Below, piece by piece: positions 18,664 through 55,450 of a stretch of 64,000 nucleotides of DNA. Position 1 is the first letter of the stretch, and every line of letters begins with the position of its first letter. The notes under the pieces are model-generated. The model worked only from the letters and a program-made list of their open reading frames with translations. It did not search any database and had not been told where the DNA came from. Origin of the DNA: Candidatus Heteroclostridium caecigallinarum (GTDB taxonomy: Bacteria > Bacillota > Clostridia > Christensenellales > CAG-314); contig CAJFSP010000004.1 in NCBI GenBank assembly GCA_904419725.1, forward strand, positions 1,769 to 65,768, read 5' to 3'. A program made the translations under genes and the position numbers.

Positions 18664-18741
18664 TTTTGCTATTGACAAGGCGATATATTAGTGATATCGT
18701 TGAAAGGCAATCAAAATACGACAACAAGGAGAGAGGGAGAG

Positions 18742-21114
18742 ATGTACAGAGTAGTCAAAAGAGACGGTCAGAAAGTGGATTTCGACATAAGCAAAATCAG
18801 TCAGGCGATTACAAAGGCGTTTGAGGCGCAGAATAAGGAATATCACCCGAGCGTGATAGACCTCATCGCGCTCAAAGTCACCGCCGATTTCGAAAATAAA
18901 ATCAAAGACGGTTTCATCGCCGTGGAAGACATTCAGGACAGCGTCGAGCAGGTGCTGATTCAGGCGGGTTATGCCGACATCGCCAAGGCGTATATACTTT
19001 ACAGAAAAAACAGGGAAAAAATCCGCAACATGAAGTCCACCATTCTGGACTACAAAGAAATCGTGAACAGTTACGTCAAGGCGCAGGACTGGCGCGTAAA
19101 GGAAAACGCTACCGTTACTTATTCGGTGGGCGGTCTTATCCTGTCCAACAGCGGCGCAATCACCGCCAACTACTGGCTGTCGGAAATTTACGATGAGGAA
19201 ATTGCCAACGCCCACCGCAACGCCGACATCCACATCCACGACCTGTCCATGCTGACGGGCTACTGCGCGGGCTGGTCTCTCAAACAACTCATTCAGGAAG
19301 GTCTGGGCGGCATCCCGGGCAAAATCACTTCCGCCCCGGCGAAACATCTTGCCACGCTGTGCAACCAGATGGTCAACTTTTTGGGCATCATGCAAAACGA
19401 GTGGGCGGGCGCGCAGGCTTTCTCTTCCTTCGACACATATCTCGCGCCGTTCGTCAAGACGGACAACCTTACTTACGAAGAAGTCAAAAAGTGCGTGGAA
19501 TCCTTTATATACGGCGTGAACACTCCTAGCCGCTGGGGCACGCAGTCGCCTTTCTCCAACATCACGCTGGACTGGACCGTGCCAAACGACCTTGCCGAAC
19601 TCAACGCGATTGTCGGCGGCAAAGAGATGGACTTCAAGTACAAAGACTGCCAGAAAGAAATGGATATGGTCAACAAAGCCTTTATCGAAGTCATGATTGA
19701 AGGCGACGCCAACGGCAGGGGCTTCCAGTATCCTATCCCTACTTATTCCATCACCAAGGATTTCGACTGGTCGGAAACGGAAAACAACCGTCTGCTGTTT
19801 GAAATGACCGCCAAATACGGCACGCCTTATTTCTCCAACTATATCAACAGCGACATGCAGCCTAGCGACGTCAGGAGCATGTGCTGCCGTCTGCGTCTCG
19901 ACCTCAGGGAACTGCGCAAAAAATCCGGCGGCTTCTTCGGCAGCGGCGAAAGTACCGGCTCGGTGGGCGTTGTCACCATCAATATGCCAAGGATAGCCTA
20001 CCTCGCCAAGGACGAAGCCGACTTTTACAGAAGACTCGACAAACTCATGGATATCTCGGCGCGTTCGCTCAAAGTGAAACGCACCATCATCACCAAACTG
20101 CTGGACGAAGGGCTTTATCCTTACACCAAGAGATATCTGGGCACCTTCAACAACCATTTCTCGACAATCGGGCTGGTGGGCATGAACGAAGCGGGGCTCA
20201 ACGCCAAATGGCTGCGCAAAGACCTGACCCACAAAGAAACGCAGGAATTTACCCGCAACGTGCTTAACCACATGAGGGAAAGACTCTCGGACTATCAGGA
20301 GCAGTACGGCGACCTGTATAACCTTGAAGCGACGCCTGCCGAATCCACGGCTTACCGCCTCGCCAAACACGACGTGGCGAAGTACCCTGACATCATCACC
20401 GCGGCGGAGGGCAGCGGCACGCCTTATTACACCAACAGCTCGCACCTGCCTGTAAGTTTCACCGACGACGTGTTTGCCGCGCTGGACATTCAGGACAAAT
20501 TGCAGACGCTTTACACGTCGGGCACGGTGTTCCACACCTTCCTTGGCGAAAAACTGCCTGACTGGAGAGCGGCGGCAAACCTGGTCAGAACCATCGCCGA
20601 AAATTACGAACTGCCTTACTACACCATTTCGCCGACATACTCCGTCTGCAAAGACCACGGCTATCTCGCCGGCGAACAGTACACCTGCCCGATTTGCGGC
20701 GGCAAGACGGAAGTCAACAGCCGCATTACGGGGTATTACAGACCGGTGCAGAACTGGAACGACGGCAAAGCGCAGGAGTTTAAGGACAGAAAAGAATACA
20801 ACGTCATGACAAGCAAACTGACGCACAAAAAGAACGCGGCGGCGAAAATCGACGTCAAAAACTTTGACATGAACGACGGCACCGCCAAACAGATTTTGCT
20901 GTTTACCGCAAAAAACTGCCCTAACTGCAAACTCGCCAAAAACTTCTTGAATGAAGTCGGCATTAAATACAGAGATATAGACGCCGAAGAAAATGTCGCG
21001 CTTGCCGAAAAATACGGCGTGGAACTGGCGCCTACCATGGTGGTCGTGAGCGGCGACAAAACGCAAAAAGTCTCCAACGCTTCGGAAATAAGGAAGTTTG
21101 TGGAAAACAGATAA
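18742..21114 (+). CDS. nrdD: Class III ribonucleoside-triphosphate reductase with N-terminal ATP-cone and C-terminal glutaredoxin-like domain
   Basis: VVKRDG ATP-cone, IHIHDL, SMCCRL, RITGYYR glycyl-radical loop, C-terminal CPNC...APT. Confidence 0.95.
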   Translation: MYRVVKRDGQKVDFDISKISQAITKAFEAQNKEYHPSVIDLIALKVTADFENKIKDGFIAVEDIQDSVEQVLIQAGYADIAKAYILYRKNREKIRNMKSTILDYKEIVNSYVKAQDWRVKENATVTYSVGGLILSNSGAITANYWLSEIYDEEIANAHRNADIHIHDLSMLTGYCAGWSLKQLIQEGLGGIPGKITSAPAKHLATLCNQMVNFLGIMQNEWAGAQAFSSFDTYLAPFVKTDNLTYEEVKKCVESFIYGVNTPSRWGTQSPFSNITLDWTVPNDLAELNAIVGGKEMDFKYKDCQKEMDMVNKAFIEVMIEGDANGRGFQYPIPTYSITKDFDWSETENNRLLFEMTAKYGTPYFSNYINSDMQPSDVRSMCCRLRLDLRELRKKSGGFFGSGESTGSVGVVTINMPRIAYLAKDEADFYRRLDKLMDISARSLKVKRTIITKLLDEGLYPYTKRYLGTFNNHFSTIGLVGMNEAGLNAKWLRKDLTHKETQEFTRNVLNHMRERLSDYQEQYGDLYNLEATPAESTAYRLAKHDVAKYPDIITAAEGSGTPYYTNSSHLPVSFTDDVFAALDIQDKLQTLYTSGTVFHTFLGEKLPDWRAAANLVRTIAENYELPYYTISPTYSVCKDHGYLAGEQYTCPICGGKTEVNSRITGYYRPVQNWNDGKAQEFKDRKEYNVMTSKLTHKKNAAAKIDVKNFDMNDGTAKQILLFTAKNCPNCKLAKNFLNEVGIKYRDIDAEENVALAEKYGVELAPTMVVVSGDKTQKVSNASEIRKFVENR

Positions 21115-21592: not shown

Positions 21593-22732
21593 TCAGGCGG
21601 AAGTCATTTCTTTTATGGCGGTTACCGCCGCCGCCACGTCGTCCGCCGTGTTGAAAAAGCCGAAAGAGAAGCGCACCGTGCCTTGCGGAAAAGTGCCCAG
21701 CGCTTTGTGCGCCAGCGGGGCGCAGTGCAGGCCGCTTCTGACCTTGATGTCGTAGCGGCTGTCGAGAATATACGCCGCTTCGCCGTTGTCGATATTGACG
21801 AAGTCCACCGAGGTCACGGCGCATCTTTCGGGGTTTGCCGTGCCCGCCAGTCTTATGCCGTCCACGCCTTTCAGGGCGTCTTCAAACGCCGCGCGCAGGG
21901 CGTTTTCGTGCCGCCTGATATTGTCGATGCCGCGGGCTTTGAGAAAGGCGAGAGAGGCGTTCAGCGACGCTATGCCCGGCAGATTGAGCGTGCCCGCCTC
22001 GAACTTGTCGGGCAGCACGTCGGGCATAGAGGTCAGGTGCGAAAAACTGCCCGTGCCGCCGTGGATGAGCGGCTTCATGAGCCGCGCCGCGCGTTCGGAC
22101 AGAACCATTCCGCCGATACCTTGCAGCGCCATAAGCCCCTTGTGGCCGGCGAAACACAGCGCGTCGATATTGTCTCTGACGACGTCGATGTCGATGACGC
22201 CGCCGGTCTGGGCGCAGTCCACGATAAACAGCGCGCCGTTTTCACGGCACATTCTGCCGATTTCGCTTATGGGATTCACGCTGCCGCACACATTGGAGGC
22301 GTGGGTCAGCACCACGGCTTTCGGCCGCCGCGAAATTTTTTCTTCGGCGTCGGCGAGATTCATCACGCCGCCGTCGCAGTTTATATAGTCAACGGCGGCG
22401 CCGCTCGCGGCGAGAGAGGAGAGAGGGCGCAGCACGGCGTTGTGTTCCATGACGGAAGTAACCACGCCGTCACCGCTTTTAATAAGCCCGAAAACCGCCG
22501 TATTGATTGCCTGGGTGACGCCGCCCGTGAAAACCACGTTTCTGCCGTCTTTCGCGCCGAAAAACTCAGCGAGAAGTTCCCTTGTGTCAAAGACTGTTTC
22601 TTCGGCGTGGAGAGCGGCGCCGTACGACGCCCTGTTGACATTGAAACAACTTGTTTCTATAAAGTTTTTTACATATTCCGCCACACCCGGCGCTTTTGGA
22701 AAAGAGGTGCTGGCGTTGTCGAGATAAATCAT
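21593..22732 (-). CDS. Cysteine desulfurase / selenocysteine lyase-like class V PLP enzyme
   Basis: IYLDNAST, EHN, DCAQ, AGHK (PLP Lys), RSGLHCAP. Confidence 0.9.
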   Translation of the reverse strand: MIYLDNASTSFPKAPGVAEYVKNFIETSCFNVNRASYGAALHAEETVFDTRELLAEFFGAKDGRNVVFTGGVTQAINTAVFGLIKSGDGVVTSVMEHNAVLRPLSSLAASGAAVDYINCDGGVMNLADAEEKISRRPKAVVLTHASNVCGSVNPISEIGRMCRENGALFIVDCAQTGGVIDIDVVRDNIDALCFAGHKGLMALQGIGGMVLSERAARLMKPLIHGGTGSFSHLTSMPDVLPDKFEAGTLNLPGIASLNASLAFLKARGIDNIRRHENALRAAFEDALKGVDGIRLAGTANPERCAVTSVDFVNIDNGEAAYILDSRYDIKVRSGLHCAPLAHKALGTFPQGTVRFSFGFFNTADDVAAAVTAIKEMTSA

Positions 22733-22797
22733 AATTTCCTTGAAAGGCAAAAACAACGCGGACAAAATTTCGTCCGCGGTGCCTTTGTCACAGTGAT

Positions 22798-23826
22798 TCA
22801 GTAAACGATGATGTTGGCGTCTTTTCTGGGCTGCACTTCGCCCACCACGCAGGAAGGCATTTCCAGGTCGCCGAGAATTTTCATGAGTTCGGCGGCGTCT
22901 TCCTTAGGGACGCTGAGCAGCATGCCGCCCGATGTCTGCGGGTCAAGCAAAATTTCCTGCATAGGGGCGGATACGTTTTCGAAGCGCACCTTGTCCGTCA
23001 GGAATTTGCGGTTCTTCTGGCCGCCGCCCGTGGTAAGAAATTCTTCCGCAAGCCTGTGCGCGCCCGGGATGTATTTCACGGCGCCGCTTTCCACCGCGAT
23101 TGTGTATTCGTCGGTGGTCATTTCGTTCAGGTGACCCAAAAAGCCGAAGCCCGTTACGTCGGTGCCCGCGTGCAGACGGAATTTGCTGGCCGCCTCAAAG
23201 GCGTATTTGTTGAGCGTCTGCATGCTTTTCAGCGCCATCTGATAGTCTTCCTCGGCGACTTCGCCGTATTTATACGCCGCTGTGACCATGCCCACGCCGA
23301 GAGGCTTGGTGAGAATAATCACGTCGCCGATTTTGCAGGTGTTGTTGCGCATGTATTTGTCCGGATGCACGACGCCTGTTACCGAAAGGCCGTATTTAGT
23401 TTCCCTGTCGTTTATGGAGTGGCCGCCGCAGAGCACGCCGCCCGCTTCCTGAACCTTTTCGGCGCCGCCGCGGAGGATTTCCGCCAGCACCGCGGTGTCG
23501 TCTTCTTCAGGGAAGCAAACGATGTTGAGCGCCACTTTGACGCTGCCGCCCATGGCGTAAACGTCGCTGAGGGCGTTTGCCGCCGCGATTTTGCCGAATA
23601 CATACGGGTCTTCCACCATAGGGGTGAAAAAGTCCAGCGTCTGTATGATGGCTATGTCGTCGCTGAGTTTGTAAACGGCTCCGTCGTCCGACGTGTCAAA
23701 ACCCACAAGCAGGTCAGGGTCGTTGAAGACGGGAATTTTTTTGACCACTTCTTTGAGCATTCCCGGGGGCAGTTTTGCCATGCAGCCGCCGCAGGCGGGC
23801 AGTTTCATGATTTTTTTGATGTCCAT
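22798..23826 (-). CDS. selD: Selenophosphate synthetase (Cys form)
   Basis: GGCMAK, DDGAV, DFFTP, ANALSDVYAMGG, GGHS, TDVTGFG, DPQTSGG. Confidence 0.96.
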   Translation of the reverse strand: MDIKKIMKLPACGGCMAKLPPGMLKEVVKKIPVFNDPDLLVGFDTSDDGAVYKLSDDIAIIQTLDFFTPMVEDPYVFGKIAAANALSDVYAMGGSVKVALNIVCFPEEDDTAVLAEILRGGAEKVQEAGGVLCGGHSINDRETKYGLSVTGVVHPDKYMRNNTCKIGDVIILTKPLGVGMVTAAYKYGEVAEEDYQMALKSMQTLNKYAFEAASKFRLHAGTDVTGFGFLGHLNEMTTDEYTIAVESGAVKYIPGAHRLAEEFLTTGGGQKNRKFLTDKVRFENVSAPMQEILLDPQTSGGMLLSVPKEDAAELMKILGDLEMPSCVVGEVQPRKDANIIVY

Positions 23827-23853
23827 ATCTACTCCTTTATATTATCTCCGTGC

Positions 23854-24096
23854 TTATACGTCCAGCGCGGTATAGTCGTCTTTTCCGTTGACCAGAAAGC
23901 AACCTTCCATATCTTCGTGTTCCGCTTCCGCCAGAAAGGCGACGTCTTCCGAGGAAAACTTCACGCATGTGCCGCAAGACGAAGATAGTTTGCGGGGAAC
24001 AGGCATCTGCGCCGATTGTATCCCGCGTTTTTTACAGAATTTGTCAAATTTAAGCGCCCCGTAATGAGTGTAAAAAGTAGCCACGTATTCTTTCAT
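23854..24096 (-). CDS. DUF3343 protein
   Basis: ATFYTHY.A and PVPRKLSSSCG motifs. Confidence 0.85.
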   Translation of the reverse strand: MKEYVATFYTHYGALKFDKFCKKRGIQSAQMPVPRKLSSSCGTCVKFSSEDVAFLAEAEHEDMEGCFLVNGKDDYTALDV

Positions 24097-24097
24097 T

Positions 24098-24313
24098 TCA
24101 GCCTTTGGTAAGTTCCAGAGTATAGTTGTCTTCGTTGTCGCCTATGACGTTCACGGCGTAGCCGTTTGTTTCGGCGTACCGTTTGCAGTTGTTCAGGGCG
24201 TTCTGGCTGCTGAGCAGCAGAGTGATTTTGCCCTCGGTGTCCTGTTTGATTGCCTTTTTAAGCATCAAAAGCGGTTCCGGACAGGAAAGTCCGCGTGCGT
24301 CTACGTTTGTCAT
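24098..24313 (-). CDS. TusA/SirA family sulfur/selenium carrier
   Basis: VDARGLSCPEP motif. Confidence 0.9.
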   Translation of the reverse strand: MTNVDARGLSCPEPLLMLKKAIKQDTEGKITLLLSSQNALNNCKRYAETNGYAVNVIGDNEDNYTLELTKG

Positions 24314-24415
24314 AACATTTCTCCGTGTTCAATCAAAAAATGAGACGCCTTCCGTAAATCGATTATAACACCGCGCGCGGCATTTGTCGACATACGGAGG
24401 GGTCAAAAATGCGAT

Positions 24416-25504
24416 TTACGATACTTTTTTGCGGTTGCAGAACCCTATGACCAGCAGCAGCACTATGCACACGCCGATGGCAATCATGCCGGCGTCGGTC
24501 GCGCCGCCTTCCGCCGTCGCGCTGGCGGCCGCGCTTGCCAGACCCCAGTTGTGCGCCAGCGCCGCGCCCGCTATCATGCCCAGCACGGCGATTGTCGAGT
24601 CGCTGTTGCCGCTGCCCGACAGCACCAGCTGTCTGAACGGACATCCGCCGAGGAACACCGAACCGAGTCCCACGACAGCCATGCCCAAAAAGTTCCACAA
24701 AAAGTCGGAGTGGGCGACAGGCTGGTCGTTAAAGCTGAAATGCAGTTTGCCGGCAAAGGCGTTGCATATGATGGTGGTGAGTATCACGGCGACAAACATG
24801 TAAACCATGTGGAACTGCCTGAACATCATGCCGTCGCGGATGCCGCCCACAAAGCAGGCTCTGGTGCGCTGGCCGATGGCGCCAACGATAAGGCCGCCGA
24901 TGAGAGCGGCGTAGATAGGGGCTCTCATTGAAGCGGGACCCGTTTCGCTGAATACCAGCAGGCTAGGCACGCCGATGAGTATAATCAGCAAAAACGCCGA
25001 TGAAGCCGGAGCAACCGCCGCTTCGAGTTTAGGCAGGTCGTAAGAACGGCGGAGCGTGAAACCGAGGTTGAGAAACACGACGCCCACGGCGATGCCGCCG
25101 ATAAAGCCAAGCAGGGCGATTATGGCGTTGAGGTCGCCGCCGCCGATGCGCAGAACCATTCTGAGCGGGCAGCCGAGGAACACCAGCGCGCCAATCATGA
25201 CTATCATGCCCAGCAGAAATCTGGTGACCGGAGCCGAGCCGCCGGTAGGCTTGAAGTCTTTTCTGAGAAGAGAAATGGCAAACGCGCCCAGCACGATGCC
25301 GATGATTTCAGGTCTGGCGTACTGAACGACGGCCGCCGAGTGGAGCTTCAGGGCACCTGCCGTGTCGCGCAGGAAGCAGGCTATGCAGAAGCCCATGTTT
25401 GCAGGGTTGCCCATGAGCGTGAGCACAAACGCCACCACGCCGATGACAATGCCGGCGCCGATATACATCCAATTATTTTTGAAGAAGTTTTTTACTTTGT
25501 TCAC
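24416..25504 (-). CDS. yedE: YedE family putative selenium/sulfur transporter
   Basis: GNPANMGFCIACFLRD, GCPLR, CFVGG, GGCPFR; GTG start 8 nt after AGGAGA. Confidence 0.9.
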   Translation of the reverse strand: MNKVKNFFKNNWMYIGAGIVIGVVAFVLTLMGNPANMGFCIACFLRDTAGALKLHSAAVVQYARPEIIGIVLGAFAISLLRKDFKPTGGSAPVTRFLLGMIVMIGALVFLGCPLRMVLRIGGGDLNAIIALLGFIGGIAVGVVFLNLGFTLRRSYDLPKLEAAVAPASSAFLLIILIGVPSLLVFSETGPASMRAPIYAALIGGLIVGAIGQRTRACFVGGIRDGMMFRQFHMVYMFVAVILTTIICNAFAGKLHFSFNDQPVAHSDFLWNFLGMAVVGLGSVFLGGCPFRQLVLSGSGNSDSTIAVLGMIAGAALAHNWGLASAAASATAEGGATDAGMIAIGVCIVLLLVIGFCNRKKVS

Positions 25505-25554
25505 AGTACATATCTCCTGTTTTTTCTTTGGATACGCTTTCGCGCGGAACGGCA

Positions 25555-25835
25555 AAAAAAAGACCCGTGAAAAAAATTCATAGGTTCCTCAGGCGATATG
25601 TTGCCGCGCGAAAAGCACGGCGCCAAGTATGTATAAGCCGACTGATGGCATACGTCGCCCAAAGGAACAACATCGCCGCTTAGGAGCCGCGCGTACGCGC
25701 AACGGCGACGGACATATTTGCCGTCAGACGAGGACACACGAAAAAAATATAGGAGCGCACAAGCCGAAACTTGTTATTTTGTCCGTATGTCGGTATCTCT
25801 TTGTTTATTATATCGCAATCATATTTTTTTTGCAA
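25555..25835 (-). promoter_or_regulatory. Promoter and long structured 5' leader of the yedE-selD operon (candidate attenuator)
   Basis: TTGCAA-17-TATAAT (25835-25807); several hairpins and a terminator-like hairpin plus U-run at 25555-25587. Confidence 0.55.
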
Positions 25836-25843
25836 GACAAAAT

Positions 25844-25872
25844 AAAAAAAGACCGACTTTGAAATCGGTCTT
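25844..25872 (-). terminator. Intrinsic terminator of the tRNA-Sec-like RNA
   Basis: AAGACCGATTTCAAAGTCGGTCTTTTTTT, 2 nt after the CCA end. Confidence 0.85.
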
Positions 25873-25874
25873 AA

Positions 25875-25965
25875 TGGCGGGACCGTGAAGGAATCGAACC
25901 TCCCCGGGCAGCTCCTAACTTCCCATCAGGCAAGCCTGAATACACACCAGCATATATCCGGTCCC
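25875..25965 (-). ncRNA. tRNA-Sec-like RNA lacking an anticodon (CUUG tetraloop replaces the anticodon loop)
   Basis: 8/5 acceptor/T fold, 6-bp D stem with UGGU loop, long variable arm, GGTTCGATTCC, G73-CCA; anticodon arm is TCAGG-CTTG-CCTGA; adjacent to selA. Confidence 0.88.
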
Positions 25966-25978
25966 ACGCCGCCCATAT

Positions 25979-26007
25979 AAGATAACACAAAGGGCGGATT
26001 TTTTCAA
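25979..26007 (-). promoter_or_regulatory. Promoter of the tRNA-Sec-like RNA
   Basis: TTGAAA-17-TATCTT with extended TG, 13 nt upstream of G1. Confidence 0.65.
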
Positions 26008-26047
26008 GTCTTTTGGCAATCGTTTCGGGCGTTCGCGCCGGTAAAAT

Positions 26048-27439
26048 TCAGCCGAACACTTTGCCGACGGCTTTTGCCACTTCTTTGTACTGGCTGTCGA
26101 ATATCGTGCGCGGGTCAAGCAGAAGTTTGTCCTGATGTATTCTGGCGATAACAGGGGTTTCGCATTCGCGCAGACGTTTTTCCGCTTCCGCCGCCGAAAT
26201 CGCGACGGGGGTTATCTGCACGACGAAAGACGGCAGCATTTCGCCCGGGGCGGACCCGCCGCCCACCTGCGACTCGGACGCTTTGACCGCCGCCGTGAAC
26301 TTGTCGGGCATGGAAGGCAGCGCCGCCAGCAGTTTTTTGGCACGCACCCGCAAATCGGTTTTGTCCGCCGCGAGATTGGCAAGGGTAGGTATTTCTTTCA
26401 TTGCTCTGTCGCCGTCGAGGTATATGCGCAGCGTCGCTTCCAGCGCGGCGAGAGTAAGTTTGTCGATACGCACCACCCTTGCGAACTGGTGCTTTTTCAT
26501 CATGTCGATGTATTTTTTCTTGCCCGCCAGTATGCCCGCCTGCGGGCCGCCCAGCAGTTTGTCGCCGCTGAAACACACCACGTCGGCGCCCGCCGCGAGG
26601 GCGTCTTTCGCCGAAGGCTCGTTCTGTATGCCGAGCAGGGCGCCGTCCACCATAAGGCCGCTGCCCACGTCGTAAAGCACCGGCAGACCCGCCGCTTTGC
26701 CTATGGCTACCATTTCTTCTATTTTGACGTCGTCGCAAAAGCCGACGAGTTTGAAGTTGCTGGTGTGCACTTTGAGCAGCGCCGCCGTGTTTTCGTTTAC
26801 GGCGTTTTTATAGTCGCCCGGGTTGGTTTTGTTTGTGGTGCCCACTTCTTTGAGACGCGCGCCGCTCATGCTCATTATTTCAGGCACGCGGAAAGAACCG
26901 CCGATTTCCACAAGTTCGCCGCGCGAAACGATGATTTCCCTGTCTTTGCCGACGGCCGCCAGCATAAGCATGACGGCGGCGGCGTTGTTGTTGACCGCCA
27001 TTGCCGCTTCGGCGCCGGTGAGTTTGCAGATGAGAGACTCGACGTGGTCGTGGCGGCTGCCGCGCCCGCCTTCGTCAAGCGAGTATTCCAGCGTGTTGTA
27101 CTGCATCGCCACCTGTTTGATGTTTTCGGCGACCGACGGCGGAAGAACCGCTCTGCCGAGATTGGTGTGCAGCACCACGCCCGTGGCGTTGATTACCGCG
27201 CGCAGATTGTGTCTGCCCGCTTCCCGGGCAGCCCTGACCGCCATGTCGGCGGCGTATCCGACGGTGACTTCGGCTGTGATTTTGCCGGAAAGCACGTCTT
27301 TTCTTATTGAGTCGAGAACGTTTCTCACGCACTCGGCGAGAGTGGCGTAAGACACGTTTTTGAGTCCGTCGTCATGACGGGCTGCGTTGATTACGTCATC
27401 GACGCGGGGAATATTGCGTAAAATCTCTTGCTTTTCCAT
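26048..27439 (-). CDS. selA: L-seryl-tRNA(Sec) selenium transferase
   Basis: N-terminal LRNIP..D domain, VINATGVVLHTNLGRA, RGELVEIGGSFR, FSGDKLLGGPQAG. Confidence 0.96.
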   Translation of the reverse strand: MEKQEILRNIPRVDDVINAARHDDGLKNVSYATLAECVRNVLDSIRKDVLSGKITAEVTVGYAADMAVRAAREAGRHNLRAVINATGVVLHTNLGRAVLPPSVAENIKQVAMQYNTLEYSLDEGGRGSRHDHVESLICKLTGAEAAMAVNNNAAAVMLMLAAVGKDREIIVSRGELVEIGGSFRVPEIMSMSGARLKEVGTTNKTNPGDYKNAVNENTAALLKVHTSNFKLVGFCDDVKIEEMVAIGKAAGLPVLYDVGSGLMVDGALLGIQNEPSAKDALAAGADVVCFSGDKLLGGPQAGILAGKKKYIDMMKKHQFARVVRIDKLTLAALEATLRIYLDGDRAMKEIPTLANLAADKTDLRVRAKKLLAALPSMPDKFTAAVKASESQVGGGSAPGEMLPSFVVQITPVAISAAEAEKRLRECETPVIARIHQDKLLLDPRTIFDSQYKEVAKAVGKVFG

Positions 27440-27589
27440 AGTCTTCTCCGTATTGTTTTATACTAACTAATATTAACACAATCGAAAGACTATTTCAACG
27501 GTTTTTTCCCTTTGCGCCGCCGCCCGCGGAAATTTGTTATTGACATTATTTTTTCTCCGCCGTACAATTACTTTGATTTGAGGAGTTTT

Positions 27590-28699
27590 ATGATTTATCT
27601 TGACAACGCCGCGACGACGCTTCCCAAACCCAAAGAAGTCGCCGAAGCGGTAACCGACGCCATGAACAACTGCGGCAACCCGGCCAGAGGCTCACACGAC
27701 GCTTCCCTCGCGGGGCTGCGCGTAATGCTGAGGGCGAGAATGGCCATTGCCGACCTGTTTCACGAGCCCGACCCGATGAACGTGGCTTTCACGCTCAACG
27801 CCACCGCCGCCCTCAACACGGCGATAGGAGGAATAAAGGGGCACATAATCATGACGGCGGCGGAGCACAACAGCGTGCTGCGCCCCGTGTTCCGCAGGGG
27901 AAACTACACCGTAGTGCCGCTTGACGGCAAGGGCAGGCTGGATGTCGGCGATATCGCCGCGGCAATGCGCCCCGATACCGAAGCGGTGGTCATGTGCCAC
28001 GCTTCCAACCTGACGGGCAACGTGTTTGACATCGAGGCGGTAAGCGGCCTGTGCGCCCGGAAAGGCGTGAGGTTTATTCTCGACGCGGCGCAGACGGCGG
28101 GACTTATAGACATAGATATGACAAAACTGCGGCTGTCGGCGCTGTGTTTCAGCGGGCACAAGTCGCTTTACGGGCCGCAGGGTACGGGCGGCATCTGTCT
28201 GGGGCAGGGGTTCAGACCCGAACCTCTGGCGGTGGGCGGCAGCGGCAGCGAGTCCTTTTCGCCGACGCACCCGACCGTTATGCCCGACGCTCTCGAAGCG
28301 GGCACGCAGAACGCGCACGGAATAGCGGGACTGCTGGCAGGAGTGGAATATATAAAAAATCTCGGCGGCAAGGCGTTTTCCGTTTCCGACGGGCACGCCG
28401 GAAGGTTTATAAAAGAAATGAAGGGCGTGGAGGGCGTTACCCTTTACGGCGATGTCGACGCCGCTTTGCGCACGCCCGTCGTGGCGCTCAACGTGCGCGG
28501 CAGGGACAGCGGCGATATAGCCGCCCTGCTTTGGGACGACTACGGAATAGCGGTGAGAGCGGGGGCGCACTGCGCGCCGCTGATGCACAAAACGCTGGGT
28601 ACTGAAAAAATCGGGGCGGTCAGGTTTTCTTTTTCGCATTTCAACACCGATGAAGAAGTTGACGCTGCAATCGCCGCCGTGAAAGAATTGGCTAAATAA
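27590..28699 (+). CDS. Second cysteine desulfurase / selenocysteine lyase-like enzyme
   Basis: IYLDNAATT, EHNS, DAAQ, SGHK, RAGAHCAP; TTGACA-17-TACAAT promoter at 27540-27568. Confidence 0.9.
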   Translation: MIYLDNAATTLPKPKEVAEAVTDAMNNCGNPARGSHDASLAGLRVMLRARMAIADLFHEPDPMNVAFTLNATAALNTAIGGIKGHIIMTAAEHNSVLRPVFRRGNYTVVPLDGKGRLDVGDIAAAMRPDTEAVVMCHASNLTGNVFDIEAVSGLCARKGVRFILDAAQTAGLIDIDMTKLRLSALCFSGHKSLYGPQGTGGICLGQGFRPEPLAVGGSGSESFSPTHPTVMPDALEAGTQNAHGIAGLLAGVEYIKNLGGKAFSVSDGHAGRFIKEMKGVEGVTLYGDVDAALRTPVVALNVRGRDSGDIAALLWDDYGIAVRAGAHCAPLMHKTLGTEKIGAVRFSFSHFNTDEEVDAAIAAVKELAK

Positions 28700-28711
28700 A
28701 GGAGGAAGATT

Positions 28712-29323
28712 ATGAAAGTTATCGACGCAATGGGGCTGCTTTGCCCCGTACCGGTAATTATGGCGAGAAACGCCATAAGGGAATTTCCGCAGGAAGGCGG
28801 CGTTGTCCAGGTGCTGGTTGACAATGAAGTCGCCACCGAAAACCTCAAAAAAATGGCGGACAGCAAGGGCTACGGCTATGAAATGGAAAAAGTTGCCGAC
28901 AGGAATTACAAGGTGACCATAACCGTGGGCGAAGGTCAGGCGCAGGAAGAAAAACCGCAGGCGGCGGCTCCGTCGCAGGCAAGGGGCGAGGGTCTTGTGG
29001 TGGCCATCGGGCAGAACCAGATGGGACACGGAAGCGAAGAACTTGGCAAAATACTCATCAAAGGTTTTATCTTTTCGCTTTCGCAACTTGACGTGCCGCC
29101 TAAATCCGTCGTGTTTTTCAATTCCGGCGTGAAACTCACGCTGAAAGACGCCAACACGCTGGACGACCTCAAAGCGCTGGAAGCCAAAGGCTGCAAAATC
29201 AAAGTTTGCGGCACCTGCACCGATTTCTTCAAAGTCAAGGACGACGTGTCCGTCGGCGAAATAGTCAATATGTACGATATCGTCGACACAATGAGCGGCG
29301 CGCAGACGGTAATCAATATCTGA
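28712..29323 (+). CDS. yedF: Selenium metabolism protein YedF (TusA plus DsrE-like domains)
   Basis: IDAMGLLCPVPV, MGHGSEELG, FNSGV, CGTC. Confidence 0.9.
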   Translation: MKVIDAMGLLCPVPVIMARNAIREFPQEGGVVQVLVDNEVATENLKKMADSKGYGYEMEKVADRNYKVTITVGEGQAQEEKPQAAAPSQARGEGLVVAIGQNQMGHGSEELGKILIKGFIFSLSQLDVPPKSVVFFNSGVKLTLKDANTLDDLKALEAKGCKIKVCGTCTDFFKVKDDVSVGEIVNMYDIVDTMSGAQTVINI

Positions 29324-29324
29324 C

Positions 29325-29567
29325 ATGGAAATTTATTTTACTTTTCCGAGCACGTCGGCGGTCATCACGGCGGAACAGGTGCTCATCGCCGCGGGCATGA
29401 AAGTCAAAGTGCGCCCCGTGCCCGGCGCGATAAGGGCGGGCTGCGGCCTGTGCCTTGCCGTTTCGCCGGACAAACAGAAAGAGGCCATGGACATACTTAA
29501 AGAAAAATCGGCGGAGTATTCCGAAATTTATTTTGTGCAGGACGGAACTTACACCAGGATTCAGTAA
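29325..29567 (+). CDS. DUF3343 protein (second)
   Basis: FTFPST and PVPGAIRAGCG motifs. Confidence 0.85.
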   Translation: MEIYFTFPSTSAVITAEQVLIAAGMKVKVRPVPGAIRAGCGLCLAVSPDKQKEAMDILKEKSAEYSEIYFVQDGTYTRIQ

Positions 29568-29818
29568 AAGAAAAAGACGGTTCAGCCGTCTTTTTTCATG
29601 TCATGTCTCATTATCACGTCAATAATATCCCCCAAGGTATTCGGCATGACGTCGGGGCGGCGGCGTCCGCCAATTTATTTTGTGCAGGACGGAACTTACA
29701 CCAGGATTCAGTAAAAGAAAAAGACGGCTCAGCCGTCTTTTTTCATGTCATGTCTCATTATCGCGCCGACGATATTCCCGAACGCTTTCAGCATGTCGTC
29801 CAGGCGGCAGTGTTCGCC
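29525..29818. repeat. 147-bp tandem duplication spanning two convergent gene ends and their terminator
   Basis: 29525-29671 vs 29672-29818; first 91 nt differ at one base, last 56 nt at about 17. Confidence 0.85.
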
Positions 29819-30370
29819 GCCGGGGTAGAGAAGCCGCGAGTTGAGTTCCAGCTGCAGGGAGAACAGCCCCGTCTTTCTGTTGACGTACGCCGTGACCCTG
29901 TTGTCGGTTTTGCCGGCATAAGGGAAATCTTCCGTCACGGTAAAGCCGCCGTTTATGAATACGTTTTTGATTTCGCCGTACAGGTCTTCGTTGCCTTTGA
30001 TGTTTTTGCCGCCGTTTATAAGCGGATTGACGTCGGTGGGGCGGGAAGGGGCCAGTTCGTGCAGGTCTATGAGATATCTGACGCCGTTTTCCGTCATGTA
30101 CGCCGCCAGCGCTTTTTTATACGGCGAGTCGGCGCTGTAATTGGGGTCGTCGCCGTCTTCGCGCGCCTTGACCATCCAATGAGTGCTTTTCATGTCGCCG
30201 AGCGCCATGGCGATGACGCCCGCTCCGCGTTCCGCCTCTTTGACGCGCCCCTCGCGGAAGTGCCGGTATGTGTGCGGAGCGCTTATGATTATCGGCAGCG
30301 TGCCGCTTTTTATGACGTAAGGCTCGGGGTGTTCTTCGTCGAAAAAACCGAAATATTTTTTACAGTCCAT
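29729..30370 (-). CDS. N-formylglutamate amidohydrolase-like zinc hydrolase
   Basis: ISAPH...E...IDLH...LQLELN pattern. Confidence 0.65.
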   Translation of the reverse strand: MDCKKYFGFFDEEHPEPYVIKSGTLPIIISAPHTYRHFREGRVKEAERGAGVIAMALGDMKSTHWMVKAREDGDDPNYSADSPYKKALAAYMTENGVRYLIDLHELAPSRPTDVNPLINGGKNIKGNEDLYGEIKNVFINGGFTVTEDFPYAGKTDNRVTAYVNRKTGLFSLQLELNSRLLYPGGEHCRLDDMLKAFGNIVGAIMRHDMKKDG

Positions 30371-31543
30371 TTATTTCACCTTGCCGCGTTCTTCCGTCAT
30401 GACGATATACAGCAGCAGCGCCAGCGCCGCCGCTCCGCTGACGATTTTCCACACGAGCGGCCAGCCCGCGAATATGCTGAAAAACTGCAGCATTTCGGCG
30501 GAAATCAGCAGCGCGAAAACCGACAGGACGGAAAGCAATATTTTTTTGCGGAACAAAAAGGCGCAGTTGCGGCGCACTTTTACGTTCACGCCCAGGTCGT
30601 TTATATCCATCAGACGGCGCAGGCGCCACGGTATGCCCACAAGTTCGTTTGGGTGTTCGGTGAGATATGCTCTCTCCCGCTCGTAACCCGCCGCTTTGCC
30701 GTCAGTCAGATATTCCCGCTCTTTTTCTTTTTCGTCGAACGCCCACACTTTGACGCTTTTTATTCTGCCTTTATATTCGAGATACACGTTGTCGCCTTCG
30801 TTTATGCCCAGTACCGTCATTGCCTGGCCTGTCAGGCGTATGACGTTTTTGTCCTCGTCGTTGTCGCTGGGGCGGAATGTTTTTAACTGCGCTTCCGCCT
30901 TGCCCACGAAAAATCCGCATATGCCGTTGACCAGCCGCGTGAAAAAGCCTTTTACCCTTTCGACGGCGGACAGTTCGCGCCAGGCGGCGGGGTAAATCCG
31001 CAAATTCTGGTTTTTTGTGGTTACCGCGTTTGCTTTTTCGTCAAGAAGCAGAAACTTGCGCACCAGCCTTGACATTTTTATGCCCGTGCCCACGCCGTTT
31101 TTGTCTTCGAGCGACGGGTCGACGGAGACGTCGGACGGCGAAAACACGAAAACTTCGCCGTTGAGTTTGTTGACCAGCGCGAAACGCCGCCCCGGCCACG
31201 ATTTCATTTTGTCAAAGGCGTTCGGCCCGACCGTTATCAGCGGTTGTCTGCGTTTGCTGTAAGCGGTGCGGAAGACTTTGTCAAAACACAGGCACGGCAG
31301 GGCGGTTATTTCCGCTTCGCGCCGTTTGCCGAGAACACCTTCGTGCACTTTTTTGGTGGTGCGGAATGTGCCGCGCAGGGCGTCGTCGTTTACCCGCACG
31401 GCGCAGATATAACCCGCGTCGCCGCTTTGCACCAGCACTCTGTCGTAATTGCCCACGCCCAGCGCTTCGGCGTCGGCTGAACATATTTCCACGCGGTTGC
31501 CTGGGAGCAGCGCGGCGCATTTTTCAGTGAATTCGAACAGCAT
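30371..31543 (-). CDS. Hypothetical protein with double-psi beta-barrel-like repeats and two C-terminal TM helices
   Basis: AEALGVGNYDRV and MTVLGINEGDNVYL resemble CDC48-N/DPBB half-repeats; GAGGTG RBS; TTGACA-17-CATAAT promoter. Confidence 0.55.
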   Translation of the reverse strand: MLFEFTEKCAALLPGNRVEICSADAEALGVGNYDRVLVQSGDAGYICAVRVNDDALRGTFRTTKKVHEGVLGKRREAEITALPCLCFDKVFRTAYSKRRQPLITVGPNAFDKMKSWPGRRFALVNKLNGEVFVFSPSDVSVDPSLEDKNGVGTGIKMSRLVRKFLLLDEKANAVTTKNQNLRIYPAAWRELSAVERVKGFFTRLVNGICGFFVGKAEAQLKTFRPSDNDEDKNVIRLTGQAMTVLGINEGDNVYLEYKGRIKSVKVWAFDEKEKEREYLTDGKAAGYERERAYLTEHPNELVGIPWRLRRLMDINDLGVNVKVRRNCAFLFRKKILLSVLSVFALLISAEMLQFFSIFAGWPLVWKIVSGAAALALLLYIVMTEERGKVK

Positions 31544-32702: not shown

Positions 32703-33065
32703 TTATACGATTGCTACACGCAAGTGTCAATCGCGTCACCGTATGTGAGAGCTGGCGTAAGCAAAAAAAGAGACACTGTGTTTACAGTGCCGTAATGGTG
32801 GTGGGGAGTACAGGGCTCGTAAGGAGCGGAGCGACGGAATACTCGCGCGGTGTTTTGCGTGGCGTTCAGGCAAACGGAGGAGAAAGGGTATTGCTATATC
32901 AAATCGGCATTGCGTTTGCTCGTGGCGGCGCCGACAAGTCGGCTGGCTTATACGATTGCTACACGCAAGTGTCAATCGCGTCACCGCAGGTGAGAGCTGG
33001 CGTAAGCAAAAAAAAGAGACACTGTGTTTACAGTGCCGTAATGGTGGTGGGGAGTACAGGGCTCG
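32703..33065. repeat. Direct repeat including the 3' 21 nt of tRNA-Val and its downstream terminator
   Basis: 32703-32819 vs 32948-33065 nearly identical. Confidence 0.85.
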
Positions 33066-33120
33066 AACCTGTGACCCCCTGCTTGTAAGGCAGATGCTCT
33101 CCCAGCTGAGCTAACTCCCC
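33045..33120 (-). tRNA. tRNA-Val(TAC)
   Basis: 76-nt cloverleaf, CTTACAA anticodon loop, encoded CCA. Confidence 0.96.
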
Positions 33121-33125
33121 GATAA

Positions 33126-33200
33126 TGGTGACCCCTGCGAGAATCGAACTCGCGTTACCGCCGTGAAAGGGCGATGTCTTGACCGCTTGACCAAGGGGCC
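33126..33200 (-). tRNA. tRNA-Glu(TTC)
   Basis: 75-nt cloverleaf, CTTTCAC loop, CCA. Confidence 0.96.
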
Positions 33201-33206
33201 GTTTTG

Positions 33207-33284
33207 TGGTAGCGGCGGTCGGATTCGAACCAACGACCTGCCGGGTATGAACCGGCCGCTATAGACCAACTAAGCTACGCCGCC
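33207..33284 (-). tRNA. tRNA-Met(CAT), elongator type
   Basis: GGCGGCG acceptor, TTCATAC loop, CCA. Confidence 0.9.
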
Positions 33285-33294
33285 ATACAAAAAA

Positions 33295-33371
<77 letters not shown>

Positions 33372-33387
33372 ATATCGATGCTTTGAT

Positions 33388-52720: not shown

Positions 52721-52869
52721 CGCCGCCACTGACCGGGGAAAAGCGAAAAATGTTAATTTACAACAGGTTTGCCTCAGCTGATAAAATCTATTGTAAATTA
52801 ACAATGAAAAATCGCTTTACAAGGCGGCGGCGAAGTGCTATACTTTGCTTACATTTGAAAAAACCCCTA

Positions 52870-53123
52870 AATGCGTTGACGAAAGACACGGGGCGTTTAT
52901 TCAACGGAGTCAGAGAACTGTCGGTCGGTGCAAGACAGTCTCCGCGTAAACGGCTTATCCCTTTCGAAGCAGGGCGGCAGAACACAAAAGTAAGTCGCTC
53001 CGGTTGACACCGTAATATGTCTTGGGCTTGTGTGAGCCTCAGAGCGGACGCTTTAAGCGTCAATTTGGGTGGTACCGCGGATTATTCGATTCGTCCCAAA
53101 CATGCGTTTGGGGCGTTTTTTTA
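52870..53123 (+). promoter_or_regulatory. T-box riboswitch leader
   Basis: AGAGA (52912), GGTG, AGTA, T-box AATTTGGGTGGTACCGCGG (53062-53080), terminator plus T-run; promoter TTTACA-17-TATACT upstream. Confidence 0.9.
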
Positions 53124-53158: not shown

Positions 53159-55450
53159 ATGAACAATTCCGTTAAGGAAATCGCCGAGCGTATCAAAGGC
53201 CTCAGGAGCGCGGTGGGCAAAACCGCCGAGCAGATGGCCGAGGAAATCGGCGTGACGACAGAAGAGTATTACAGAGCCGAAGCGGGCGAACTTGACTTCG
53301 CTTTCACGTTTCTTTACCGCTGCGCCGGCGCGCTGGGCATCGACGTGTCGGAACTCATCACCGGCAAATCCGCCACGCTCAACACCTGGCAGGTGGTGCG
53401 CAAGGGCGAGGGTCTGCCGCTGGAACCGCGCGAAGGTTTCGCCTATTACAACCTGGCGTCGCTCAAAAAAGACAAACTTTCACAGCCTTATTTCGTGGTG
53501 GCGAAACACTCCAACACGCTGGAAAACTCGCCAATCAGCCTGACGCAGCACGCAAGCGAAGAGTTTGACTATGTGGTGAAAGGCACCCTCAAAGTGCAGG
53601 TGGAAGACCATATCGAAGTGCTGCACGAAGGCGACTGTATTTATTACGACAGCACCAAGCCGCACGGCATGGTGGCGGTGGGCAAAGACTGCGAGTTTAT
53701 CGCCGTGGTCGTGCACGGCACCGCCGAAGAGTTCAAACTGCCGCACGAAGTGCACGAAAAATACGAGTCGGACAACGACAAAGACTACGATTACTCCAAA
53801 TGCGTGTTCCACAAATTCGTCAAAGTCAAGGAAGACGAACACGGGGCGTTGCAGGAAATCAAGTTCACACCGACGAGAAACTTCAACTTCGCTTTCGACG
53901 TGGTGGACGCCGTTGCCGACAAAAACCCGAACAAGCGCGCAATGCTGTGGCTGTCCAAAGACAAGGAAGAGCGTGATTTCTCTTTCGGCGACATGAAACG
54001 CCTGTCAAATAAAGCCGCCAACTATTTCAAGGCAAAGGGCATCAAAAAGGGCGACAGGGTCATGCTGGTGCTGCAAAGACACTATCAGTTCTGGATTGCC
54101 ATACTCGCTCTGCATAAACTGGGCGCGATTGTCATCCCCGCCACGCACCTGCTCGTCAAGCACGACTTCGAGTACCGCTTCCAGGCGGCGGGTGTGAAAG
54201 CCATTGTCGCCACCAGCGAAAACGACGTGCCGCACCAAGTGGACATGGCGCAGGAAACCAGCCCTACGCTGCAAATCAAAATGGTGGTGGGCGAAAACCG
54301 CGACGGCTGGGACAACTTTGACGCCGAAATGGAAAAATATAGCGACGTGTTCGAGCGTCCGCGCGGCGACGAGGACGTCACCAACGATGACCTCATGCTG
54401 ATGTATTTCACGTCGGGCACGACGGGCTATCCGAAAATAGCGGCGCACAACTTTCTGTATCCGTTGGGGCATCTCATCACCGCGAGATACTGGCACCACG
54501 TTGACCCGAACGGTCTGCACTTTACCATAGCCGACACCGGCTGGGGCAAAGCCGTGTGGGGCAAACTGTACGGCCAGTGGCTGTGCGAAGCGGCTGTGTT
54601 TACCTATGACTTCACCAAGTTTGACGCCCACGACATTCTGCCGCTGTTCAAAAAATACAACATCACGACATTCTGCGCGCCGCCGACAATGTACCGCTTC
54701 TTTATTAAAGAAGACCTGTCGAAGTACGATTTGTCCATGCTCAAACACACGACCATCGCCGGCGAGGCGCTTAACCCGGAAGTTTTCGAGCAGTGGCTCA
54801 AAGCCACGGGGCTCAAACTTATGGAAGGTTTCGGTCAGACGGAAACCACGCTGACCATCGCCAACCTGGTGGGCATGGAGCCGAAACCCGGCTCGATGGG
54901 CAAACCGTCGCCGCAATACGACGTGGATTTGCTGGACGCAGACGGCAACCCCGTCAAAGTTGGCGAACAGGGCGAAATATGCGTGCGCACAAGATACGGC
55001 GCGCCTTGCGGGCTTTTTGCGGGATATTATCTCGACGAGGAAAAGACCAAAGAAGCGTGGGATAACGACATTTATCACACCGGCGACATGGCGTGGAAAG
55101 ATGAAGACGGTTATTATTGGTATATCGGCCGCACCGACGACGTCATCAAATCGTCGGGCTACCGCATCGGGCCTTTTGAAATCGAAAGCGTCATAATGGA
55201 ACTGCCGTACGTCCTTGAATGCGCCGTTACCGGCACGCCTGACCCGATAAGGGGGCAGGTGGTCAAAGCCACAATCGTTCTGACCAAAGGCAAAGAGGCG
55301 TCTGACGAACTCAAAAAAGAAATTCAGAACTACGTCAAGGTGCACACCGCTCCGTATAAATACCCTAGGGTGGTGGAATTCGTGGAAGCGCTGCCTAAAA
55401 CCATCAGCGGCAAAATCCGCCGCGTCGCACTCAGGGGAGAAGGAAAATAA
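53159..55450 (+). CDS. XRE-HTH/cupin regulator fused to an AMP-forming acyl-CoA synthetase
   Basis: N-terminal HTH and cupin (H..EE, YYDS..PH); YFTSGTTGYPK, EGFGQTE, TGD, TISGKI. Confidence 0.9.
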   Translation: MNNSVKEIAERIKGLRSAVGKTAEQMAEEIGVTTEEYYRAEAGELDFAFTFLYRCAGALGIDVSELITGKSATLNTWQVVRKGEGLPLEPREGFAYYNLASLKKDKLSQPYFVVAKHSNTLENSPISLTQHASEEFDYVVKGTLKVQVEDHIEVLHEGDCIYYDSTKPHGMVAVGKDCEFIAVVVHGTAEEFKLPHEVHEKYESDNDKDYDYSKCVFHKFVKVKEDEHGALQEIKFTPTRNFNFAFDVVDAVADKNPNKRAMLWLSKDKEERDFSFGDMKRLSNKAANYFKAKGIKKGDRVMLVLQRHYQFWIAILALHKLGAIVIPATHLLVKHDFEYRFQAAGVKAIVATSENDVPHQVDMAQETSPTLQIKMVVGENRDGWDNFDAEMEKYSDVFERPRGDEDVTNDDLMLMYFTSGTTGYPKIAAHNFLYPLGHLITARYWHHVDPNGLHFTIADTGWGKAVWGKLYGQWLCEAAVFTYDFTKFDAHDILPLFKKYNITTFCAPPTMYRFFIKEDLSKYDLSMLKHTTIAGEALNPEVFEQWLKATGLKLMEGFGQTETTLTIANLVGMEPKPGSMGKPSPQYDVDLLDADGNPVKVGEQGEICVRTRYGAPCGLFAGYYLDEEKTKEAWDNDIYHTGDMAWKDEDGYYWYIGRTDDVIKSSGYRIGPFEIESVIMELPYVLECAVTGTPDPIRGQVVKATIVLTKGKEASDELKKEIQNYVKVHTAPYKYPRVVEFVEALPKTISGKIRRVALRGEGK

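Follow-up and report, generated by a model that had tools for sequence, protein, structure and literature searches.

Genes and RNA of the locus

Here we describe a selenium locus in a 64,000-nucleotide stretch of DNA from Candidatus Heteroclostridium caecigallinarum (hereafter the window), where selA and selD stand together with an RNA gene that derives from the tRNA for selenocysteine (Sec) and has no anticodon. The window covers positions 1769-65768 of contig C4 in a draft genome of 1.28 Mb (G000; 19 contigs, 94.6% complete), which forms one genus with four further species, G001, G002, G003, and G004. All five assemblies are drafts of 94-95% completeness, and the genomes are reduced in size (1.2-1.6 Mb). 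Comparisons were made with a sample of 61 relatives, whose selB-positive members with selA were G019, from a sister genus of the same family, and G044 and G057, from other families, and with a class-wide sample of 400 genomes scored for selA. Protein families were assigned by Pfam and NCBIfam profiles, and RNAs were searched by Rfam and ARAGORN. The interval 21593-29567 comprises eleven features, with the selA-side operon on the minus strand and a divergent operon on the plus strand. The genes that a preliminary description of this DNA had named there were all recovered in place by the profiles. The protein genes and the RNA are as follows.

21593-22765, minus strand: sclA1, class-V pyridoxal phosphate (PLP) cysteine desulfurase / SclA-like selenocysteine lyase, EF2568/SclA kind (PF00266, 268.7 bits; TIGR01977, 418 bits against a cut-off of 377)
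22798-23826, minus strand: selD, selenide water dikinase (TIGR00476, 375.3 bits)
23854-24096, minus strand: DUF3343 / putative selenium-sulfur carrier (Se_S_carrier), copy a (PF11823, 58.8 bits)
24098-24313, minus strand: TusA-like sulfur/selenium transfer protein (PF01206, 57.5 bits; TIGR03527, the YedF model, matched in its N-terminal part)
24416-25555, minus strand: yedE, putative selenium transporter (TIGR04112, 459.7 bits)
25875-25965, minus strand: tRNA-Sec-derived RNA, here called selC-dAC, 91 nt (Rfam RF01852)
26048-27439, minus strand: selA (TIGR00474, 591.2 bits; PF03841, 491 bits; PF12390, 22.4 bits)
27590-28699, plus strand: sclA2, second SclA-like class-V PLP desulfurase (PF00266, 221.8 bits; TIGR01977, 373.4 bits)
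28712-29323, plus strand: yedF, sulfurtransferase-like selenium metabolism protein with TusA and DsrE-like domains (TIGR03527, 213.1 bits against a cut-off of 110)
29325-29567, plus strand: DUF3343 / putative selenium-sulfur carrier, copy b (PF11823, 74.4 bits)

SelA is full length, its residues 7-458 corresponding to positions 1-453 of the 455 in the TIGR00474 profile, and residues 6-459 align with A. aeolicus SelA (PDB 3W1H, residues 4-447) at E 8.6e-116. The preliminary description had regarded the tRNA-binding domain at the N-terminus and the PLP lysine as intact, and both were observed. PF12390 matched barely over its cut-off of 22 bits, and the RxxPxVD motif was kept in 5/5 species of the genus. 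Similarly, K294 of the GDK motif, which is invariant in 12/12 sequences, sits opposite K285 of A. aeolicus SelA, which we take to be the PLP-binding lysine. SelD of G000 is the Cys form, with an N-terminus reading ...PACGGCMAK and no stop within the match; throughout the genus, selD has no in-frame TGA, and amino-acid identity across the five species is 81-87%. SelD of G019 is likewise free of in-frame TGA. One in-frame TGA each was observed in selD of G044 (C8:49096-50025) and G057 (C46:110463-111389), and these two SelD proteins probably contain Sec.

Family calls were clearly over their cut-offs with three exceptions, namely the weak SelA N-terminal domain, sclA1 on the SclA model NF040779 (354 bits against 525), and sclA2 on TIGR01977, where its score fell slightly under 377. 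The two desulfurase genes are paralogues. sclA1 is the last gene of the selA-side operon and follows selD also in G002, and not in G001 or G003. sclA2 is the first gene of the divergent operon and adjoins selA in G001, G002, G003, and G004 too; a promoter-like TTGACA-17-TACAAT precedes it at 27540-27568 on the plus strand, and its start is likely the ATG at 27590 after GAGGAG, although the open reading frame (ORF) opens at 27512. The start codon of yedE is uncertain, as comparison of N-termini places it about 18 codons further in among the relatives. The source genome contains a single copy of seryl-tRNA synthetase (SerRS; 561 bits).

The gene order in the genus was sclA2-yedF-DUF3343b, divergent from selA-RNA-(yedE-tusA-DUF3343a)-selD-(sclA1), and it is conserved despite a SelA identity of only 59-72%. 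Only sclA2-yedF-DUF3343b, selA, the RNA, and selD are universal. As the genes flanking the locus differ among the species, there is no conserved extra neighbour.

The RNA gene was then compared among the five species and with the RNAs of six selB-positive relatives (11 RNAs in all). In the window, Rfam matched RF01852 at 25879-25965 on the minus strand with 49.2 bits (gathering score, 47) and with a 5-position gap in the anticodon loop, and ARAGORN called no tRNA there. The RNAs of the other species scored 58.7 (G002), 48.0 (G003), and 36.6 bits (G004, under the threshold), and that of G001 was unreported at E<=1e-5, so that membership of the family is borderline by score. The structure of selC-dAC comprises an acceptor of a 7-bp stem plus a G.A pair, the discriminator G73, an encoded CCA, a 6-bp D stem with a UGGU loop, a long variable arm, and a 5-bp T stem with a UUCGAUU loop. 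Its anticodon arm in the source genome reads UCAGG-CUUG-CCUGA, that is, a 5-bp stem closed by a CUUG tetraloop. The lengths of the acceptor/T helix, the D stem, and the variable arm in the genus equal those of the six relatives. Thus, selC-dAC is a complete tRNA body in which a tetraloop replaces the anticodon loop.

The loop CUUCAAA was present in 6/6 of the selB-positive relatives and in 0/5 of the genus, where we observed four distinct loops on 4-5-bp stems: CUUG in two species, UUUUA, GCAA, and the 8-nt CUUUAAAA. The last belongs to G002 (L039 10620-10715), sits on a 4-bp stem, contains UUA, and differs from CUUCAAA by one substitution and the loss of one stem base; it may represent an intermediate state prior to truncation. 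What remains of the old loop is its 3' part in the GCAA form and its 5' part in the CUUG forms, indicating at least two separate loop deletions. A firmer count (at least two, possibly three) is barred by the SelA tree, in which G000, G002, and G003 are not separated.

Outside the anticodon arm, 25 pairs were counted. Across all 11 RNAs, 98.2% of the cells pair and double changes occur in 11/25 pairs, which was reached by 0/500 shuffles and by none of the slid registers. Within the genus, 124/125 stem cells pair and compensatory double changes occur in 8/25 pairs, located in the acceptor, D, and T stems. This pairing, together with the compensatory changes, indicates that the stems are maintained by selection. 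None of 17 T-stem columns varies in the six selB-positive RNAs, whereas 6/17 vary with compensation in the genus, a pattern that would fit release from a SelB contact. The flanking signals are as follows.

25979-26007, minus strand: promoter-like site ahead of the RNA gene (TTGAAA-17-TATCTT, TG before the second hexamer, 9/12)
25849-25872, minus strand: intrinsic-terminator-like hairpin directly after the CCA end (10-bp stem, 4-nt loop, TTTTTATTTT tail)
25556-25850, minus strand: yedE promoter and leader of about 230 nt (TTGCAA-17-TATAAT at 25835-25807; two GCTCCT repeats)

In G001, TTGACT-17-TATAAT is seen by eye at the corresponding spot upstream of the RNA. The yedE promoter is conserved in 4/4 aligned species.

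Decoding genes, selection, and distribution

The preliminary description had reported no selB in the window, and this absence extends to the whole genus. In 0/5 genomes was the cut-off of the selB profile TIGR00475 (242 bits, 581 positions) exceeded, and the SelB C-terminal winged-helix domain PF09107 was likewise found in 0/5. The best TIGR00475 match in the source genome reached 189.8 bits over model positions 1-261 only, in a 411-amino-acid frame that we read as EF-Tu. The other matches covered the N-terminal part of the model only, and we read their sizes as fitting other translational GTPases. In all five genomes, the RNA comes directly after selA, without a contig break between them. In contrast, selB was over the cut-off in 61/61 selA-positive genomes outside the genus (3/3 relatives and 58/58 class members), lying mostly right beside selA in those class members; selA, selB, and selC usually co-occur and are often adjacent, as the preliminary description had noted. 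In G019, G044, and G057, selA and selB are adjacent, tRNA-Sec is canonical (67-71 bits), and GrdB is encoded; SECIS_4, a family of Sec insertion sequence (SECIS) elements, matched in G019 and G044. The order in G019 is selA-selB-selC, with grdB and grdA, containing in-frame TGA, immediately upstream of selA.

No second tRNA-Sec was found in the source genome, where one of 14 RF01852 matches was over the cut-off and none of the 44 tRNAs called by ARAGORN was for Sec. GrdB and FdhA were each found in 0/5 genomes of the genus, with GrdB in 3/3 selB-positive relatives as a positive control. No SECIS family of Rfam matched in the window. A TGA read-through scan of coding frames, heuristic, not exhaustive, and made for the source genome, gave 37 filtered candidates, none of which had a Cys/Sec redox motif and none of which was convincing; most had a start codon at or a few codons past the TGA and resembled neighbouring genes. 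The preliminary description had likewise found no in-frame UGA selenoprotein candidate. selU (TIGR03167), yqeB (TIGR03309), and yqeC (TIGR03172), which the preliminary description had proposed to look for, were each found in 0/5 genomes of the genus, so that SelA is the sole known selenophosphate user left there. Among the 61 relatives, selD was present in nine, namely the eight selA-positive genomes and one other.

Selection on the locus was then analyzed. SelA amino-acid identity was 59-72% in nine of the ten pairs within the genus (59-69% to G000) and 84% between G001 and G004. The ratio of nonsynonymous to synonymous substitution (dN/dS) by the NG86 method, reported for the pairs with defined dS, was 0.103-0.196 in 7/10 pairs, values that are rough because dS is saturated in most pairs. 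The least saturated pair, G001-G004, gave dN 0.11, dS 0.975, and dN/dS 0.113. Selection on SelD, YedE, YedF, and sclA2 was similar. Of 106 SelA columns invariant in seven selB-positive proteins, 96 were unchanged in all five proteins of the genus, and ten, L207P/A and T235S/C among them, were altered in at least one species. The selA ORF is intact in 5/5 genomes. In the maximum-likelihood SelA tree, the genus formed one clade (support 91/96), sister to G019 (99/98), on no long branch. These results speak for purifying selection on SelA and against decay of the locus, and the conserved catalytic core gives no sign of relaxed selection. The preliminary description had listed a complete selB, a canonical tRNA-Sec, selenoproteins elsewhere in the genome, and relaxed selection on selA as observations that would speak against it; all were looked for as described above, and none was found.

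selA was present in 8/61 relatives (all five species of the genus, G019, and the two genomes of other families), and in 60/400 genomes of the class-wide sample, of which the 58 not already checked were all selB-positive. A SelA search of genome contigs gave six loci, the closest with 61% identity. Metagenome contigs were scanned with a D-loop/T-loop pattern, by which 92 stretches matched, 80 loci were listed, and 79 matches were read. Among the matches listed, 78 had a CUUCAA-type loop, as in canonical tRNA-Sec, and one (L068) was identical to the RNA of the source genome; with this pattern, no anticodon-less form outside the lineage of the genus was observed among them.

Public runs of 11 studies contain the locus wholly or partly, including several chicken-gut metagenomes and six RNA libraries. 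The host organisms are common in chicken-gut metagenomes, and test material therefore exists. In three studies, contigs of RNA libraries span parts of the locus, and those of X15 and X17 reach all 30 depth bins; stretches without such contigs are uninformative. One contig of run X17, at the selC-dAC end of the spacer between selA and the RNA, showed a word depth of 344.6, and the bin holding the RNA averaged 260; contigs over selA and selD showed only 5-13. This depth hints weakly at an abundant small RNA, the level, strand, and ends of which are unreadable from assembled contigs.

Readings of the locus

We consider it probable, though well short of certain, that the locus is a working Sec-synthesis module detached from the ribosome, in which Sec-RNA is made and not decoded. 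Judged by their families, YedE, YedF, TusA, the two DUF3343 proteins, and the two SclA-like paralogues would take in and pass on selenium, and SelD would produce selenophosphate. SerRS does not read the anticodon, and selC-dAC keeps the long variable arm and G73. The single SerRS would be expected to load serine onto selC-dAC, and SelA, with its D-arm-binding N-terminal domain and PLP lysine, would turn the Ser-RNA into Sec-RNA. Such Sec-RNA would not be decodable because both SelB and an anticodon are absent, and it may serve as a selenocysteinyl donor to a non-ribosomal acceptor or as a protected route to free selenocysteine. In tRNA-Sec, SerRS and SelA are known to depend on the long acceptor helix and variable arm, the 6-bp D stem, and G73. 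All of these are retained in selC-dAC, and the features needed only by SelB and the ribosome are gone. We suggest that, after SelB had been lost, a stable short loop would remove the risk of UGA read-through and yet preserve the L-shape. The proposal of the preliminary description, that the lineage dropped UGA decoding and kept Ser-to-Sec chemistry on an RNA scaffold, thus fits all the comparative evidence, with the chemistry argued from homology.

Several points weigh against this reading. The loss of the loop is not uniform, G002 keeping 8 nt that include UUA. In G003, yedE-tusA-DUF3343a is missing from the 19.9 kb examined, and sclA1 does not follow selD in G001 or G003. The dN/dS values carry the roughness noted above, the selenoprotein scan was a heuristic covering one genome, and a canonical selC or a selenoprotein gene may lie in the unassembled part of the drafts. 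Furthermore, the loading of serine, its change to Sec, and what then becomes of the product are all inferred, and building Sec on an RNA merely for release would, by our reasoning, be costly.

A fourth use of selenium is a tentative extension of the detached-module reading, and we hold it to be possible rather than probable. Sec-RNA would donate its amino acid to a peptide, protein, lipid, or metabolite through a putative aminoacyl-tRNA-dependent transferase, and truncation of the loop would have been selected to avoid the ribosome. With regard to the acceptor enzyme, the source genome gave no member of the FemAB or L/F-transferase families, which counts against the detached-module reading. 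DUF2156, a family with the aminoacyl-tRNA-transferase fold, was considered as the partner and rejected, since homologues occur in 33/61 relatives including those without selA. The standalone DUF2156 / LPG_synthase_C protein of the source genome has 350 amino acids, with an AMP-binding (PaaK/LuxE-like) gene directly after it (G000:C10:6801-9160 for the two; L139 1252-3610), and G001, G002, and G004 each have two paralogues.

Alternatively, SelA and its RNA may have taken on a new function, with the RNA serving the SelA decamer as scaffold or ligand, or carrying a seryl or dehydroalanyl group, and with SelA making, for example, Cys-RNA from thiophosphate or acting on another phosphorylated substrate. 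selA genes are described to outlive the Sec trait in other bacteria, in a new, unspecified role (PMC4607533), and the ten altered columns among the 106 of SelA, as well as a cysE not over the cut-off in the source genome, could point the same way. However, the tRNA-binding domain of SelA, selD, and the RNA are all retained here, unlike the H. pylori type, and the retention of yedE, yedF, both DUF3343 genes, and selD alongside speaks for selenium as the substrate still in use. All 5/5 genomes contain a CysK-family gene (275-290 bits, under the strict cut-off), so that a need for RNA-dependent Cys is not evident, and Cys on an anticodon-less RNA could not reach the ribosome. We therefore regard a new function of the pair as unlikely. 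As a discriminator, the cysteine route itself was set aside; with CysK under the strict cut-off in all five and cysE not over it in the source genome, it is uninformative either way.

A slow decay of the locus, in which the Sec trait ended together with selB and glycine reductase and left selA, the RNA, and selD as remnants not yet erased, is in our view quite improbable. It would account for the absence from the genus of both selB and the selenoprotein genes of its sister genus (the grd operon), for the parts of the locus missing in G001 and G003, and for an anticodon loop that is different in every lineage, as at an unconstrained site. Nevertheless, selA is intact in 5/5 species at 59-72% identity, with dN/dS of 0.10-0.20 and 96/106 columns kept, and the RNA pairs in 124/125 cells with 8/25 pairs compensatory within the genus. 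Useless genes are quickly lost from reduced genomes, and those of this genus are reduced to 1.2-1.6 Mb. In addition, CUUG and GCAA are stable tetraloop types rather than random damage.

The RNA could also be regulatory, its charging state reporting the selenium supply and acting in a T-box-like manner on the yedE leader through its GCUCCU repeats, which are complementary to the AGGAGC of the variable arm. The yedE leader contains GCTCCT twice in G000 and three times each in G001 and G002, compared with 0.094 per kb per strand genome-wide, and G003 is without both the variable-arm AGGAGC and the yedE genes after the RNA. The leader gave no Rfam match at E<=1, thus matching no known RNA family. 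On the other hand, G004 has AGGAGC and yet a short leader without GCTCCT, and GCUCCU is equally a plain anti-Shine-Dalgarno sequence. AGGAGC is one base off the AGUAGC of the selB-positive relatives, so it is perhaps just inherited, and a sensor alone would leave the purpose of the imported selenium unexplained. A regulatory role as the whole explanation is thus very improbable. The leaders compared, besides window positions 25556-25850, were L041 4940-5335 and L039 10740-11010, and the yedE leader may be an undescribed selenium-related leader.

Lastly, normal UGA decoding by selB, canonical selC, and selenoprotein genes hidden in the unassembled 5% has a nearly negligible probability, for although all five drafts are incomplete, tRNA genes frequently drop out of assemblies of this kind, and the 44 tRNAs of the source genome include no tRNA-Ser(UGA), selB would have to be missing from five independent assemblies when 61/61 other selA-positive genomes show it, its usual position after selA is contiguous sequence with only the RNA, and the independent metagenome contig L068 bears the identical anticodon-less RNA.

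Neighbouring features and comparison with known systems

The gene for NrdD, the anaerobic ribonucleotide reductase, adjoins the selenium locus at 18691-21114 on the plus strand. Its product has a C-terminal thioredoxin/glutaredoxin-like domain (residues ~728-799) with weak similarity to the Uxx-star seleno-glutaredoxin family, and no TGA is in the reading here. Right past the other end of the locus, two long ORFs overlap on opposite strands (29603-30886, plus; 30371-31543, minus). Neither has a significant family match or a homologue beside the locus in the other species, and the gene status of either is ambiguous. Four clustered tRNA genes (33045-33372, minus strand), namely Val-UAC, Glu-UUC, and two Met-CAU, are located about 3.5 kb away from the locus. 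A T-box leader at 52867-53101 on the plus strand (104.6 bits) precedes a gene for a 763-amino-acid cupin and AMP-binding protein (53159-55450, plus strand), which is neither an aminoacyl-tRNA synthetase nor an amino-acid biosynthesis gene.

To our knowledge, selenocysteine has been known solely as an amino acid inserted co-translationally, and every described SelA with a tRNA-binding domain serves SelB and the ribosome. If the detached-module reading is true, Sec-tRNA has, or can gain, a role outside translation. selC-dAC would then be a natural minimal substrate defining what SerRS and SelA require of tRNA-Sec, a compact orthogonal Sec-carrier for synthetic biology, and a genetic handle toward the acceptor.

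Compared with the Sec-decoding trait, as in G019 and E. coli, the locus has homologous selA and selD, a selC-derived gene, the same order, and presumably the same SerRS, SelA, and SelD chemistry, whereas SelB and the anticodon loop are absent from the genus and no UGA/SECIS selenoprotein genes were found in the searches described above. Other tRNAs also act as aminoacyl carriers off the ribosome, as staphylococcal tRNA-Gly does for the Fem transferases and seryl-tRNA for VlmA. However, as far as is known, these donor tRNAs keep a normal anticodon loop and bear a standard amino acid, and a Fem homologue was not found in the source genome.

The orphan SelA of the H. pylori and H. acinonychis type, found also in some Frankia, is described in the consulted part of PMC4607533 as having lost the tRNA-binding domain, selC, and selD, and a reaction on another phosphorylated substrate has been proposed for the H. 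pylori protein. The genus described here differs from it in keeping the N-terminal domain, the RNA, and selD. With the orphan SelD of the third selenium trait, that of the selenium-dependent molybdenum hydroxylases (YqeB, YqeC), and with the SelU trait, as presented in parts of PMC2276186 and PMC2432076, the locus shares a selD that stands with yedE, yedF, DUF3343, and SclA-like genes without Sec decoding. In contrast to those traits, yqeB, yqeC, and selU were not found (0/5) and selA is present. No description of an anticodon-less tRNA-Sec was found by full-text searches or in the consulted text of the reviews and surveys PMC7609411, PMC8762117, PMC5330540, PMC5389517, and PMC13188914; the mention of 'incomplete selenocysteine systems' in metagenomic contigs in PMC5389517 (Figure S13) may include related cases and limits this negative.

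Similarly, SepRS/SepCysS, the allo-tRNAs, and the selC* tRNA-Cys share with this locus an amino acid built on a tRNA, or a tRNA-Sec-shaped molecule with altered decoding (PMC8762117, PMC5389517, in the parts consulted). According to the same parts of these sources, allo-tRNAs and selC* tRNA-Cys have anticodons and function in translation, some of them together with a SelB copy dedicated to them, whereas the RNA of this genus has no anticodon. Set beside these systems, the locus would be a new form of the Sec system, with a real chance of a novel use of selenium.

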